Origin: Thermococcus sp. JdFR-02
Lineage (GTDB): Archaea; Methanobacteriota_B; Thermococci; Thermococcales; Thermococcaceae
Reading direction: 5' to 3'
DNA length: 14,292 nt
Assembly: GCA_002009975.1 (NCBI GenBank)
Contig: MTLP01000029.1
Span: 1-14,292, forward strand
Positions 9,973-14,292 of this stretch are shown here, piece after piece. The translations under genes and the position numbers were made by a program. The notes under the pieces were generated by a model. That model worked only from the letters and a program-made list of their open reading frames with translations. It ran no database searches and was not told the DNA's origin. Position 1 is the stretch's first letter, and each line of letters starts with the position of its first letter.

Positions 9973-10050
9973 GGCCGGGGTGGTGTAGCCTGGTCAGCAC
10001 AGGGGACTGTGGATCCCCTAGCCCGGGTTCAAATCCCGGCCCCGGCCCCA
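9973..10050 (+). tRNA. tRNA-His (GUG), intronless, with encoded G-1 and CCA
   Basis: Acceptor stem GCCGGGG/CCCCGGC, anticodon arm GGGGA-CTGTGGA-TCCCC, T arm CCGGG-TTCAAAT-CCCGG, discriminator C followed by CCA, and G at -1 (9973). Confidence 0.98.
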
Positions 10051-10170
10051 GAAAAGAGCTTCTTTAAAATTGTATGTAAAATTACGTCATTCTTGACTAA
10101 CTTGCTTTTTCTAAATTTTTCAGAGATTATTGAGGAAAGTACTATCCAAACCAAAAAATAAATAGCAAAA

Positions 10171-11337
10171 TTAGATTATTTTTTCTCCATTTAGGTATAC
10201 AGAGTCTATATGTAATTCTTTGTCTAAAATCACCAAATCTGCTGAATAACCTGGTAGCACTGCTCCAATCCTTGGAATTTCAACAGATTTTGCTGGATTA
10301 TATGTCATAGTTCTAATCGCATCCTTTAAAGGAACTCCAATTTTGACAAGATTCCTTAAAGCTCTATCCATGGTGAGAGTACTTCCTGCGAGAGTTCCAT
10401 CTTTTAGTCTGCAGATTCCATCTCTAACGATTACCTTCAATCCTCCTAGCAAGTACTCTCCATCCGGAAGCTCTGTTGCAATTATTGAATCCGTAATTGT
10501 AACAATCCTCTCCACTCCTGCATGTTTCCACGTGAAGTGAATTATTTGAGGCGAGATATGTATGAGGTCACATATAAGCTCGAGATATACTTGGGGGCTT
10601 TCAAGGGCAGCAACGATGATACCAGGGTTTCTATGGTTAATGGGTCTCATAGCATTGTACAGATGGCTTGCTCTATTAGCCCCAGCATATATAGCCGCTT
10701 TTGCTTCGTCATAAGTTGCGTTTGTATGTCCCAATGATACATATATCCCAAGAGTCCGTGCATACTGGGTAAACTCTAATGCCCCATCAAGCTCCGGAGC
10801 TATCGTTATCGTTTTTATATTCCCTTCAGAAGCTTTCCAATATTCTTTAAGCTCTTGAATATTGGGAAGACGGATAAACTCTGGATTTTGGGCTCCTTTT
10901 TTTTCCTTACTTATATAAGGTCCTTCTAAATGGAGTCCCCCAATCTTTGCTCCTATAGATAAACTTTTTTGATAATTGATTGCATTTTTTACTCCCTTAG
11001 CTGCAGTCAAAAGAACTTCATGGGATGCAGTCACGGTAGTAGGAAGGAAAAAAGTTACGCCATGCATTAAATATCTTTCGCTCATCTTAATTAATGCCTC
11101 TTCAACTTCCTGCTCTGAACCATCCATGGCACTGTATGTAACATCAAACCCTCCTATTCCGTGAGTGTGTATATCAATGAACCCTGGAGCGATTATCTTG
11201 CCCTCCAAATCTTCTCCACTTGAATTCTTCCCGACATACACCTTTTTTATAATCCCATTTTCAATTTCAACAGTTCCTGGAAAGATCTCTTCAAAGGGTG
11301 TTATTATTCTAGCATTCGTTAGAACTAGTCTTGTCAT
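10171..11337 (-). CDS. nagA: N-acetylglucosamine-6-phosphate deacetylase
   Basis: Motifs APGFIDIHTHG, FLPTTVT, HLEGPYIS..KKGAQ, TIAPE, SLGHTNA, SHLYNAM, DLIH, ITDS (catalytic Asp) and TLAGSTLTM. Confidence 0.95.
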   Translation of the reverse strand: MTRLVLTNARIITPFEEIFPGTVEIENGIIKKVYVGKNSSGEDLEGKIIAPGFIDIHTHGIGGFDVTYSAMDGSEQEVEEALIKMSERYLMHGVTFFLPTTVTASHEVLLTAAKGVKNAINYQKSLSIGAKIGGLHLEGPYISKEKKGAQNPEFIRLPNIQELKEYWKASEGNIKTITIAPELDGALEFTQYARTLGIYVSLGHTNATYDEAKAAIYAGANRASHLYNAMRPINHRNPGIIVAALESPQVYLELICDLIHISPQIIHFTWKHAGVERIVTITDSIIATELPDGEYLLGGLKVIVRDGICRLKDGTLAGSTLTMDRALRNLVKIGVPLKDAIRTMTYNPAKSVEIPRIGAVLPGYSADLVILDKELHIDSVYLNGEKII

Positions 11338-11351
11338 CTTCTCATCTCTCC

Positions 11352-12089
11352 TTACAAGTATTTTAAGCGGGCTTTGTATTTTTTAATGACCTTTATGTTA
11401 TGCTCTTGAGCTCCCGGTAGATGAGCACTTAAAAACACTGGAGGCTCAACTTCTCTTTCAACTAGTATTTTGATTGCCAACGTAACAATTGTTTGAGCAA
11501 TAAATGCCACAACAATGGTGGATACTGGAAAGACTTTCATTTTAAATCCAGGGATCTCTAATGCAGCATCTCCTCTAGGCACTTTGTTGTCTATAACTAT
11601 ATCTGCAACTTCAAAAAGCCTTTTGTGATACTTGTTTTTTGGTGTTAAACTCTTGGAGTATTCAACTGAAGTTATGGCTATAACTTGGCATCCAAGGGAT
11701 TTAGCATTCATAGCAACTTCGACCGGGAATACATTAACTCCCGAACTCGAGACAATCATCACAACATCTCCTTCCTGGACTCCCATCGCTTTTAATACTA
11801 TCTCAGCGTATCCCTCGACATGTTCCATTTCTGTAGACTTTAAAGCTCCATGATAAACATTTATATCGGTATTCATTATTGGATTTACAGGAACGAGACC
11901 TCCAGCTCTGTAAGAGAGTTCTTCACCGATTATTGCTGAATGACCTGCTCCAATTACATGCAAGACTCCCCCTTTTTCCAAAGAGTGAGCCAGTACTTGA
12001 GCTGCCTTTTCAATGTTCTCTCCTTCTTCATCCTTTACCCTTTTTAATAAGGAATTAACAACCGAATATGCCTCTTCCAAAACGTTCAT
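11352..12089 (-). CDS. Single-SIS-domain sugar-phosphate enzyme (UPF0309/NagS-like)
   Basis: Motifs GAGHS, YRAGGL, SSSGVN, PVEVA, ITSVEYS, DIVIDNKVPRGDA and PPVFLS; GAGGTGAG RBS. Confidence 0.8.
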   Translation of the reverse strand: MNVLEEAYSVVNSLLKRVKDEEGENIEKAAQVLAHSLEKGGVLHVIGAGHSAIIGEELSYRAGGLVPVNPIMNTDINVYHGALKSTEMEHVEGYAEIVLKAMGVQEGDVVMIVSSSGVNVFPVEVAMNAKSLGCQVIAITSVEYSKSLTPKNKYHKRLFEVADIVIDNKVPRGDAALEIPGFKMKVFPVSTIVVAFIAQTIVTLAIKILVEREVEPPVFLSAHLPGAQEHNIKVIKKYKARLKYL

Positions 12090-12126
12090 AACAACTCACC
12101 TCACGGACACAGGTGAAATTTACATA

Positions 12127-13836
12127 TCACCCCACAACCGCTTTAGATAACCCTTTAGGATTATCTACTGGGGTTTTCCTATAAATACCAAGCCAAAAGG
12201 AGAGTAGCTGGATAAATGTTGTTACATGAAATATGTAAGGCATGTTACGTTGTTTAATATCTACTAGAACTGTGTTCTCAGAACTTTCTAATGTTTCCCT
12301 TAGCTCTGGAATCTCTCCAATTACAATTAATTTGCCAACATCTTTATAGAACTTGTCAATCTTTTGAATTAGTCTTTCTTTTGCAGCTTTCTCAAGTGGC
12401 AGTATTAGGATGTTATACATTTCAGAAGATGTTAATGCTAGAGGACCATGGAGATACTCTTCAAGCTCTAGAGCCTCTGCATGGGAATATGCTGTTTCCT
12501 TCAGTTTAAGTGCTCCTTCTATCGCTATGGGGTAACTCAATCCTGCCGAGATTATATAGCCTCTATTTAACTTCTGAATGCTCTTTGCAACTGCTTTAGC
12601 TTTTTTCTCGTAGTTAGGTAGCACATTTTTAATTTCATCAGCAATAGTTGACAATTGATGAAGTAGTTCTTCGGATTCTTCATTGCTGATTAAGCCAAGC
12701 TCTCTCCGAACATTCAAAGATAATGAATACAGGACTGCTAATGTTCCAGTGAAACTTTTTGTTGCTGGAATTGCAAGCTCTGGTCCAGCTAATATTGGCA
12801 AAACAACGTTAGAATACTTGGAAACCTTACTAAGGGGGTTATTTGTAATCGAAATAACCCTAATTCCTTTCTTTTTACTTTCTTCCACTGTTTCGACTAT
12901 ACTCCATGTATCTCCAGATTGGGTTATTGCTATTATTACATCTCCTTCTTTAATGTGGGCAAGTTTATACATTCTAAATTCAAAGACCGAAATCGGAATT
13001 ATATTTAGTTCAGGAAGCAAATATTGGAATTCAAGTCCAGCATTTAGTGAAGAACCACTACCTATCACGTAAATTCTTTCAGATTCTTGGATTAATTTAG
13101 TTGCTACTCTCATTTTGGGATGATATCTAAACGAATATATCCTTTTCAGGAGATATGGTATTTCGTAAATCTCTTGGATCATGGAATATTTACAAGATGA
13201 AGTGCTTACGAGAGTCTCATTGCTTCTAGGAGATATTTGTTGTTTATGCATCCAAACTGCTAGAGAATTTGAAGAGACCTCATAAATTTTTTCATGAAAT
13301 CTAAGCAAGATATCTTTTACTGTAGTTAAGAGCAATGTGTCATCGACTTGAGTTAAAAAAATTGGACGATAATTAGAAAAAGCAAACACTATTTCAGAGC
13401 TTCCTTTCCTACAATAACCGATTAAAGAAAAGGAACCGCTCTCTCTCTGCAAGACATCGCTAAGGGAGTTAAACAATTCACTACTCAAAAGCTTCTCGGT
13501 GAAAACTCTAACAAGTTTTTGAAACAGAACCTCTGGTAAACTTTCTGGAACACCTTCAATTGATACGATAAGGGTATCTTCAATTTTTTCAGTCATAAAT
13601 ATCGAGTTAGCACCAGTTTCATATCTGTTCGCATTTAGGATGATGTTTTTTGGAATGAAATATTTAGAATTTATTTCTTTACACAAATGGTTTGTGTTAA
13701 TACTTCTATGGACACTAGAATGTCCGTGATTCCAAATAACTGTCTCATAATTTATTTGATATGTTGTTAGGAATTCACAACATTTTGAAATTACCTTTTT
13801 AGAGGCTCCAAAGATTAAGATCATATTACCAAACAT
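12127..13836 (-). CDS. GlmS-like double-SIS protein with degenerate glutaminase domain; probable glucosamine-6-phosphate deaminase/isomerase
   Basis: The C-terminal part has GSGSS, TQSGDT, AGPELAIPATKSF, EGALKLKETAYSHAE, HGPLA and DNPKGLSKAV. The N-terminus is MFG rather than MCG. Confidence 0.75.
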   Translation of the reverse strand: MFGNMILIFGASKKVISKCCEFLTTYQINYETVIWNHGHSSVHRSINTNHLCKEINSKYFIPKNIILNANRYETGANSIFMTEKIEDTLIVSIEGVPESLPEVLFQKLVRVFTEKLLSSELFNSLSDVLQRESGSFSLIGYCRKGSSEIVFAFSNYRPIFLTQVDDTLLLTTVKDILLRFHEKIYEVSSNSLAVWMHKQQISPRSNETLVSTSSCKYSMIQEIYEIPYLLKRIYSFRYHPKMRVATKLIQESERIYVIGSGSSLNAGLEFQYLLPELNIIPISVFEFRMYKLAHIKEGDVIIAITQSGDTWSIVETVEESKKKGIRVISITNNPLSKVSKYSNVVLPILAGPELAIPATKSFTGTLAVLYSLSLNVRRELGLISNEESEELLHQLSTIADEIKNVLPNYEKKAKAVAKSIQKLNRGYIISAGLSYPIAIEGALKLKETAYSHAEALELEEYLHGPLALTSSEMYNILILPLEKAAKERLIQKIDKFYKDVGKLIVIGEIPELRETLESSENTVLVDIKQRNMPYIFHVTTFIQLLSFWLGIYRKTPVDNPKGLSKAVVG

Positions 13837-13864
13837 TTCTCATCCCATGAAAGTTAAGTAGGTT

Positions 13865-14137
13865 TCATTTATCCTCTAATGGAAAAACATTCTCTAAAAG
13901 GTGCACTATTTCTTTTAGTGCTTCATTTTCATCTTCTCCTTTTATTCTTAGAATAATTTCATCTCCATAATCAACCCCTAGAGCTAAAATCTGGAGAATA
14001 TTCTTTGCATTTGCAAGCCTTTCATTTTTAATAACTGATATGTCTGATTTAAACTTCTTAGCAGTTTCGACAAATATTGCTGCAGGTCTTGCATGAAGAC
14101 CACTTTTGTTCTTTATTACAAGCTTCTTTTCGATCAT
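13865..14137 (-). CDS. ptsH: PTS phosphocarrier protein HPr
   Basis: GLHARPAA motif, with His at exactly position 15 from ATG 14137. Also NAKNIL..LALGV..GDEI and GEDE.EA; 90 aa; AGGTGAT RBS. Confidence 0.95.
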   Translation of the reverse strand: MIEKKLVIKNKSGLHARPAAIFVETAKKFKSDISVIKNERLANAKNILQILALGVDYGDEIILRIKGEDENEALKEIVHLLENVFPLEDK

Positions 14138-14205
14138 CTTAATCACCTAATGAAGACTCCGAACTTGAAGTGTTAAGTCACAACCATTACATTGTTTTGG
14201 GGCTT

Positions 14206-14224
14206 TGTTTATATATTTTTTGGT
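14206..14224 (-). promoter_or_regulatory. Candidate BRE/TATA promoter of the ptsH operon
   Basis: Minus strand reads ACCAAAAAATATATAAACA, about 70 nt upstream of the HPr start. Confidence 0.5.
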
Positions 14225-14292
14225 GATTGGGTGGTTTTTGTTTGTCTGTTTGCCGTATAAAGTTCGTATAAGTCTCTATTCTCAAAATAGAC

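Follow-up and report, generated by a model that had tools for sequence, protein, structure and literature searches.

A candidate amino-sugar phosphotransferase system island in the archaeon Thermococcus sp. JdFR-02, divided over three contigs by an inverted repeat

The occurrence of a gene for HPr, the phosphocarrier of the phosphoenolpyruvate (PEP)-dependent sugar phosphotransferase system (PTS), at the head of an apparent amino-sugar operon in Thermococcus sp. JdFR-02 raises the question of whether a hyperthermophilic archaeon owns a complete PTS and, if so, what sugar it would import. The stretch of DNA at issue (the window; 14,292 nucleotides (nt)) is one entire contig (C28, MTLP01000029.1) of the JdFR-02 genome (G000, assembly GCA_002009975.1; 2.36 Mb in 44 contigs). 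PTS-mediated sugar uptake in Archaea has been characterized only in haloarchaea, as cited in the available extract of PMC8100219, and a full-text literature search (supplements excluded) found no paper on a Thermococcales PTS; the genes discussed here are already named in public annotation, and it is the system itself for which no paper was found. The best overall explanation, encompassing the island, its pathway, the role of its sugar isomerase (SIS) protein and the origin of its transporter, is in our estimation a probable one. If it holds, the locus provides hyperthermophiles that rely on ADP-dependent kinases for glycolysis with a PEP-driven relay that is complete and apparently functional.

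Four genes on the minus strand of the window compose the operon. These are ptsH (13865-14137; HPr, 90 aa; PF00381, 104 bits; TIGR01003, 97.9 bits against a cut-off of 47.9), a gene for a GlmS-like protein with two SIS domains (12127-13836; 569 aa; 217-232 bits on the NCBIfam glmS models, whose cut-offs of 381-418 are not reached), a gene for an SIS_2/UPF0309 protein of the NagS family (11352-12089; 245 aa; NF002805, 289.6 bits against 135) and nagA, encoding N-acetylglucosamine-6-phosphate (GlcNAc-6P) deacetylase (10171-11337; 388 aa; TIGR00221, 326.6 bits against 225.65 over the full length). HPr, the SIS protein and NagA thus pass their curated cut-offs and the GlmS-like protein fails its own; for NagA the cut-off is that of the GlcNAc-6P deacetylase equivalog, from which we take its predicted activity. 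The genes are separated by 28, 37 and 14 bp, and the preliminary description of this DNA, which had reported four co-oriented genes with gaps of 14-37 bp headed by an HPr with its His15, is borne out on each point. The histidine lies within SGLHARPA; its numbering takes as start codon the ATG at 14137, in front of which stands AGGTGAT. Residue 46, which by its numbering we take to be the site of HprK, is Asn rather than Ser. No second HPr is encoded in the JdFR-02 genome.

The preliminary description had made its reading depend on the presence of enzyme I (EI) and enzyme II (EII) components elsewhere in the genome. A profile search of the genome found them: an EI (TIGR01417, 488.5 bits against 341.7, with PF05524, PF00391 and PF02896 all present), two EIIA proteins (PTS_EIIA_2, PF00359; 114 and 121 bits), an EIIB (PF02302, 45.3 bits) and an EIIC of the Asc/Gat family (PF03611, 335.8 bits; NF006919, a model named 'PTS ascorbate transporter subunit IIC', 446 bits against 380). 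The PTS can as such be placed in the ascorbate family and not in the Glc or Man families, and an EIIC of the PF02378 type was not found in the JdFR-02 genome. Every relay motif is intact, namely EI His179 in the TSH motif, HPr His15, the EIIA histidine in GVALPHARP and the EIIB cysteine in ILTVCGVGQGSS, where we presume the EIIA and EIIB motifs to be the phosphorelay sites.

These components reside on two other contigs. C40 (4561 bp) carries an Orc1/Cdc6-like gene, an EIIA gene, the EI gene and then the second EIIA gene on the opposite strand, while the EIIC and EIIB genes stand at the end of C10. The right ends of C10 and C28 have 101 identical nt in common, and both ends of C40 overlap these by 79 nt in inverted orientation; the end sequences were not found on any other contig of the genome. 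The window accordingly ends in the first 101 nt (14192-14292) of a perfect 123-nt inverted repeat, of which the remaining 22 nt lie on C40. C10 ends in the other arm (77462-77562), upstream of EIIC, and the two ends of C40 (L004 1-101 and 4461-4561) take in the same pair of arms. In sequencing run X1 the repeat unitig reaches a depth of 201, whereas the stretch that the arms enclose is at 90-96. Only one layout fits the overlaps, C10 - repeat - C40 - repeat - reverse of C28. Consistent with it, the repeat is present at roughly twofold depth in X1, two relatives carry the island order contiguously (G081 and G090; one is a single-contig genome of 1.96 Mb, and in the other the island lies on a 484-kb contig), and G090 has a perfect repeat at the two corresponding sites. 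By this sequence-based reconstruction the window genes are the right-hand arm of one complete PTS island of ~10 kb, split over three contigs by the repeat, with the order EIIB and EIIC (leftward), repeat, Orc1/Cdc6-like, EIIA and EI (rightward), EIIA (leftward), repeat, and HPr, GlmS-like, SIS and NagA (rightward). The G081 and G090 proteins are 89-90% (EIIC), 78-85% (NagA), 80-87% (SIS) and 61-64% (EI) identical to those of JdFR-02.

The possibility that a bacterial contig was misplaced in an archaeal genome during assembly or binning, which the preliminary description had raised against itself, must be considered at this point, given that all five sequencing runs carrying the window stretch are metagenomes and that several JdFR-02 contigs have a G+C content of 42-49%, against ~37.5% for the rest. 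We regard such an artefact as exceedingly improbable. The operon shares its contig with housekeeping genes of the Thermococcales type (Taw3, enolase, a CGP-CTERM Cys-rich protein, DeoC and thioredoxin reductase), the island is unbroken in the two relatives, and the nearest homologues of its products bear Thermococcus names. As to the linkage of the contigs, C40 is present at 100% identity in four of four sequencing runs examined, each of which also carries part of the window. Among the contigs mapped to C40, no listed piece crosses the repeat into a named flank, and the orientation of the middle segment is not fixed by them; parts of C40 are without cover in runs X2-X4, and no inference is drawn from these gaps.

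With the components in hand, a pathway can be proposed. Phosphate would pass from PEP to EI (His179), HPr (His15), the EIIA histidine and finally the EIIB cysteine, and the ascorbate-family EIIC would import an N-acetyl amino sugar while phosphorylating it at C6. The SIS protein may then remove a 3-O substituent, such as D-lactate from N-acetylmuramic acid-6-phosphate (MurNAc-6P), and rehydrate the product to GlcNAc-6P; NagA would take off the acetyl group, and the GlmS paralogue would convert glucosamine-6-phosphate (GlcN-6P) into fructose-6-phosphate (Fru-6P) and ammonia. Such a route would bypass that of the ADP-dependent kinase. The preliminary description had envisaged a path from an N-acetylhexosamine (HexNAc) through HexNAc-6P and GlcN-6P to Fru-6P, and the gene content fits it. 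We have good, if incomplete, confidence in the backbone of PTS import, NagA and a GlmS-like deaminase leading to Fru-6P. The imported substrate is most likely an N-acetyl amino sugar, perhaps muramic acid of bacterial cell walls.

The final step rests on the GlmS-like protein. It begins MFGNM and is therefore without Cys1, the glutaminase nucleophile, whereas the true GlmS of the genome (on C1) begins MCGI. The same is seen in each of the eight locus-linked copies examined, all of which keep the isomerase residues: the five of the Thermococcaceae type (G000, L020, L021, L022 and L043) begin MF, MI or ML, and three crenarchaeal copies begin MG. In the Thermococcaceae copies the glutaminase domain is, in addition, shorter than that of the true GlmS by a block of ~15-20 residues, and the degenerate N-terminal domain of the JdFR-02 protein gives no GATase match in Pfam. 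The scores on the synthase models are low (NF001484, 231.5 bits against 381; TIGR01135, 216.7 bits against 418). The isomerase domain, on the other hand, is intact, with K-x-K-E, H-G-P and a C-terminal LSKAV that align with E. coli GlmS (1moq), in which we take the catalytic residues to be K485, E488, H504 and K603; the phosphate-binding and catalytic columns are invariant among the copies. A search of the genome found no NagB, and GlmD matches were far under the cut-off. Since Cys1 is lost, the isomerase residues are kept and the genome yields neither NagB nor GlmD, the protein is likely a GlcN-6P deaminase and not a synthase. In function it would resemble GlmD or NagB-II without belonging to either family (NF041128, 54.9 bits against 580; NF046059, 103.3 bits against 430). 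If the assignment is true, a GlmS paralogue devoid of its nucleophile has become a catabolic deaminase.

For the SIS protein, the best solved relatives are 3cvj (160.6 bits) and Streptomyces NagS (9eol, 156.5 bits; ~38% identity by hand count), and its H50, R61, E89 and D174, invariant in 15 homologues, are equivalent to the essential H53, R64, E94 and D179 of NagS. In the available portion of PMC12680351, NagS is reported to be related to MurQ. The protein itself is not a member of the MurQ family as modelled (TIGR00274, 23.1 bits against 302; NF003915, 33.7 bits against 168). A loop residue considered as a marker of substrate (N228 of NagS, His in the window protein) was dropped, as it varies within the NagA-linked group.

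SIS and NagA genes are adjacent in all six non-PTS Thermococcaceae loci examined, a set that does not include a seventh SIS-positive, EI-negative genome (G087; 40% identity; 61% complete). Among 80 SIS loci from other genomes of Archaea and Bacteria, many of them incomplete, so that the counts are lower bounds, NagA occurs in at least 21, an Asc-type EIIC in at least 23 and both in at least five; Bacillota-type loci without NagA carry a phosphotriesterase (16 of the 80) or a creatininase-family protein (18 of the 80). A Desulfurococcales locus (L098) groups HPr, EI, EIIA, EIIC, EIIB, GlmS-like, NagA, AnmK, PBP4B-like, SIS and GH84 GlcNAcase genes; its AnmK passes NF007148 (430 against 387), and the best PBP4B match, at 163 bits, lies under the cut-off of 385. 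AnmK yields MurNAc-6P, and to our knowledge MurQ is the sole enzyme known to degrade that compound. In 151 sampled genomes of the order to which L098 belongs, AnmK was found in 15 and UPF0309 in 32; UPF0309 was present in 14 of the 15 AnmK genomes, with both genes within 6 kb in nine, and canonical MurQ was found in none of the 151 (E<=1e-20). Nor does MurQ exceed its cut-off in G000, G081, G090, G097 or G098. Because UPF0309 accompanies AnmK where canonical MurQ is not found, we favour a MurQ-like step ahead of NagA; the reaction of a NagS-like enzyme would correspond to the latter half of that of MurQ, run backwards. Our confidence in this particular assignment falls somewhat short of even. 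The earlier label 'nagS-like' stands as to family and essential residues, and the protein may act before NagA in the manner of MurQ and not as a GlcNAc-6P dehydratase. Were this so, the island would scavenge a bacterial cell-wall sugar, and the UPF0309/NagS family would replace MurQ in Archaea, making bacterial murein a food for hyperthermophilic archaea.

Two further SIS contexts deserve record. The non-PTS SIS-NagA cluster of Thermococcaceae (L041 500-15400 in G008, with the same set in L037-L040 and L042) comprises an SBP_bac_5 binding protein, a 348-aa SIS deaminase-like protein, a 916-aa glycosidase-like protein, a ceramidase-like protein, an M14 peptidase, a GNAT protein, an AsnC-type regulator, a GFO/IDH/MocA oxidoreductase, a xylose-isomerase-like TIM-barrel protein and a GHL10 protein. 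In L073 (2782-10732) and 15 similar Bacillota loci, the SIS gene is joined by a PRD regulator, two EIIA, EIIB, an Asc-type EIIC and phosphotriesterase-family and creatininase-family proteins, sometimes with a KDGP aldolase, and NagA is absent.

Another view would hold that the system is a plain PTS for GlcNAc (or GlcNAc oligomers) and that the SIS protein is a true dehydratase of the NagS type, which, as happens in Streptomyces, forms a side branch or acts as a metabolic checkpoint. The score against NagS and the retention of all four essential residues agree with this, as do the functional coupling of NagS and NagA in Streptomyces described in the accessible text of PMC12680351 and the want of AnmK or any other murein gene in our search of G000. 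The same text, however, confines NagS orthologues to Streptomycetaceae and reports three homologues at 26-36% identity as inactive; the products of Streptomyces NagS and NagA are toxic, an odd core for a conserved catabolic pair, and the co-occurrence with AnmK where MurQ is lacking would be left unexplained. On balance we deem this view unlikely. It could also be proposed that the SIS protein interconverts HexNAc-6P epimers by way of a 2,3-ene, converting N-acetylmannosamine-6-phosphate (ManNAc-6P) into GlcNAc-6P as NanE does, with the PTS importing ManNAc or a related HexNAc. NagS does bind GlcNAc-6P as well as ManNAc-6P and dehydrates them to the same product (PMC12680351, in the extract seen), and the SIS-NagA pair is tightly conserved, but an epimerase would presumably need a reversible hydration, the loci examined showed no sialic-acid or ManNAc genes, and the link to AnmK would again lack an explanation. 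We hold it to be improbable.

The distribution of the system bears upon its origin. EI exceeds its cut-off in 14 of 97 Thermococcaceae genomes (11 of the 79 of good quality), so that the PTS, presumed rare in Archaea when the locus was first described, is less rare here than assumed. Six EI loci were examined by tblastn, and three are of the island type (L020, L021 and L022). The remaining three are of a second type; one of these (L024 9340-14917, in G015), annotated by Pfam, encodes a DeoR regulator, a PfkB kinase, EIIA_2, a fused EIIB-EIIC (PF02378), HPr and EI, and is a fructose-type locus resembling that of haloarchaea, with L023 and L025 the other two. The named nearest homologues of EIIC are from Thermococcus sp. 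EP1 (91% identity), a Desulfurococcus metagenome-assembled genome (MAG; 75%), Thermosphaera (70%) and Infirmifilum (69%), followed by Asgard and Thermoflexus sequences (55%) and Thermoanaerobacter (~50%). For EI they are sequences with Thermococcus names (60-65%), the Desulfurococcus MAG (54%) and then others at 42%. In a tree of 23 EIIC sequences the Thermococcaceae form a clade (100/99) that is sister to the Desulfurococcus MAG (100/99) within a Thermoprotei clade (100/100); L057 was excluded for an internal stop. Because EIIC branches inside the Thermoprotei, the Thermococcaceae EIIC, at least, was probably derived from Desulfurococcales-like Crenarchaeota and not directly from bacteria. 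The designation 'bacterial-type' therefore applies to this PTS at greater depth only, its nearest relatives being crenarchaeal. The other parts may have different histories. The island SIS and NagA resemble their non-PTS Thermococcaceae counterparts (51-64% and 56-58%) more than they do the copies in crenarchaeal PTS loci (42-51% and 43-49%), for which reason the island may be a mosaic. In the way of separate observations, the EIIC of one Desulfurococcaceae MAG (L057 1604-2890) has an internal stop, that of a Thermoprotei MAG (L048 1-784) is matched in pieces, and an EI at 60% identity is named as belonging to a Spirochaetaceae MAG. A 4580-bp contig under the record title of a Thermotogaceae MAG (L043) encodes HPr, GlmS-like, SIS, NagA and Orc1-like proteins at 50-82% identity to those of JdFR-02 in the gene order of G075, and is either mis-binned Thermococcus DNA or a transfer.

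Several observations weigh against the account given above. The SIS protein, at ~38% identity, falls between the NagS homologue reported active (65.5%) and the three reported inactive on GlcNAc-6P, the compound that NagS dehydrates (26-36%; PMC12680351, as far as its available text goes), and for that reason its activity is not settled by homology. The essential NagS residues are also invariant in Bacillota homologues with quite different gene contexts, and are uninformative as to substrate since they are invariant whatever the context. The murein link is drawn from other genomes that are mutually related and hence not independent; AnmK, GH84 and M14 genes were not found in G000, and AnmK-family kinases may act on other anhydro-sugars. 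With respect to origin, the EIIC tree is midpoint-rooted only and its rows were picked for carrying names, and the EI of crenarchaeal loci is only 35-42% identical, which is a further reason to allow the parts different histories. No RNA runs are listed as carrying the stretch. Last, the solved relative of EIIC, UlaA, carries ascorbate, and in the complete genome of G075 (L021), where HPr, GlmS-like, SIS, NagA, Orc1-like, EIIA and EI genes are kept in another order, no Asc-type EIIC was found; in G091 (C70; a genome 75% complete) the island-type EI has an in-frame TAA, and both of these islands look partial or decaying.

These last points would suit a PTS that carries ascorbate or some other acid that is not an amino sugar, standing beside an unrelated operon, or a relay that is regulatory or vestigial; the EIIC, after all, passes the ascorbate IIC model and matches UlaA, and G075 and G091 furnish soluble genes without a transporter and an interrupted EI. 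Against this, every open reading frame of the island is accounted for and none was seen to be a gene of ascorbate catabolism, and both outward operons are preceded by the same 123-nt sequence. Moreover, an Asc-type EIIC stands beside the SIS family in loci of both Archaea and Bacteria (the 23 or more of 80 noted above), and EIIC is 89-90% identical across three genera. We find this explanation highly improbable, and retain the amino-sugar PTS as the preferred reading of the island.

The means by which such an island would be regulated may lie in its middle. The repeat brackets the 4.3-kb Orc1-EIIA-EI-EIIA segment, and of its arms, one starts ~55 nt from ptsH and the other ~22 nt from EIIC, in each case upstream. 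Within it, ~70 nt upstream of the ptsH ATG, is a TATA-box-like element, TATATAAA on the coding strand (14208-14215, minus strand), that may serve as a promoter; because the element sits within the repeat an identical copy precedes EIIC, and with one in each of two identical arms both outward operons share one upstream sequence. The G090 repeat, perfect over 122 nt and situated at the two corresponding sites, is identical between its arms yet matches that of JdFR-02 only partly (local alignment score 77 over ~120 nt). Arms that are identical within each genome and divergent between genomes point to concerted evolution, by gene conversion or inversion, and the middle segment may be invertible. 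G081 retains only a 25-nt remnant of the repeat. In G000 and G081 each arm has a 14-nt motif at its inner edge, and in G090 the motif occurs exactly at that edge of one arm.

The Orc1/Cdc6 paralogue in this segment passes its family cut-off (TIGR02928, 234 bits against 181.3; PF09079), has the Walker motifs GPPGTGKT and FVFDEID, and stops 6 bp ahead of EIIA. Each of the four Thermococcaceae islands has it, as does L043 (4.6 kb), and it surpasses EI and HPr in conservation (85% identity per column on average over four copies). It is 27% identical to the canonical Orc1 of the genome, in which its C-terminal tail has no match. Five other genomes hold relatives at 37-59% identity, two of them on second contigs, whose match to it stops at residues 403-409, and a tail at 412-425 exists only in the four island copies. 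A predicted complex with EIIA scored 0.70 (runs 0.70, 0.00 and 0.72), against 0.00 for the best of three controls, with alignments of our own of four rows, runs agreeing in at least 25% of contacts and a partner pLDDT (predicted local distance difference test) of at least 82; of 80 solved complexes 58 attained this score level, as did two of 110 mismatched pairs, a calibration that is only rough here. In the modelled interface EIIA 53-73, His71 included, meets two parts of the Orc1-like protein, its tail (412-425) and residues 329-340; the prediction supports, and does not show, that the two proteins bind. Conceivably, the phosphorylation state of this EIIA, presumably co-transcribed with the Orc1-like gene, would report sugar supply to the AAA+/winged-helix Orc1-like protein, which would in turn act on the identical promoter regions of both repeat arms, with the 14-nt motif at their inner edges. 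That the paralogue is a PTS-responsive transcription factor and not a replication initiator, its tail docking on the EIIA face around His71, is a tentative suggestion about which we are rather doubtful. If true, an Orc1/Cdc6 paralogue has been recruited as a PTS-linked regulator, an archaeal stand-in for bacterial PRD or LevR-type PTS regulators.

At its other border the operon appears to end in a T-rich tract directly 3' of the nagA stop codon (10153-10170, minus strand), a candidate archaeal terminator, and 120 bp beyond nagA is a tRNA-His gene (GTG; 9974-10050, plus strand). Integration of the island at this tRNA was considered and is unsupported: no direct repeat of at least 11 nt joins the island borders, no second tRNA-His fragment is present in the JdFR-02 genome, and the islands of L020-L022 are not adjacent to a tRNA. 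The genes that flank the island in JdFR-02 are missing from those three loci. On the C10 side it is bordered by a TrpY-family regulator (75173-75709), whose 46%-identical homologue in a genome of another genus (L144 284-2679; G001:C7) adjoins a 50%-identical Orc1-like gene. Elsewhere in JdFR-02, contigs C18, C22, C24-C26, C29, C32, C35, C37, C38 and C42-C44 have a G+C content of 41-49% against ~37.5%, and may be plasmids, viruses or contamination; further Orc1/Cdc6 genes lie on C25 and C22. As the same island exists in related genomes and the nearest homologues are named for Thermococcus strains, the system may be testable in culture.

It is instructive to set the island beside systems already known. 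Thermofilum pendens has a PTS transporter, according to the extract of PMC2678158, and the fructose PTS of haloarchaea (Pickl et al. 2012 and Cai et al. 2014, as cited in the available part of PMC8100219) is likewise archaeal and likewise built of EI, HPr and EIIABC. That system is of the fructose type, with a PF02378 EIIC, PfkB and DeoR/GlpR; the L024 locus resembles it, and the island is a different system. With the L-ascorbate PTS UlaABC (SgaTBA) of E. coli and Pasteurella (4rp8, 5zov) the island shares the families of EIIA, EIIB and EIIC, but it lacks genes for ascorbate-6-phosphate lactonase, decarboxylase and epimerase, and the neighbours are amino-sugar enzymes. NagS of Streptomyces coelicolor (SCO4393; 9eol) has in common with the window SIS protein its family, four essential residues and a link to NagA, and differs in that the window gene lies within a PTS operon and that the equivalent of N228 is His. 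The chitin route of Thermococcus kodakarensis proceeds by way of Dac, GlmA, an ADP-dependent kinase and GlmD, and like the proposed pathway ends in the conversion of GlcN-6P to Fru-6P by an enzyme related to the GlmS isomerase domain; in JdFR-02, which is without a GlmD equivalog, phosphorylation would be by PEP through the PTS and deacetylation by NagA at the level of the 6-phosphate. The logic is also that of the MurNAc route of E. coli, MurP-MurQ-NagA-NagB, into which AnmK feeds anhydro-MurNAc. There the EIIC is of the Glc family, the second enzyme is MurQ and the last is NagB, whereas the island would employ an Asc-family EIIC, an SIS protein of the UPF0309/NagS family (23-34 bits on MurQ models) and a GlmS paralogue without Cys1, in an archaeal host and on a putative substrate. 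The crenarchaeal relative L098 adds to the likeness with AnmK and a sub-cut-off PBP4B-like protein in its locus, and we take pbp4B to adjoin murQP in E. coli. In each, a 6-phosphate delivered by a PTS would be passed to an enzyme of the SIS fold, to NagA and to a deaminase, and so to Fru-6P.

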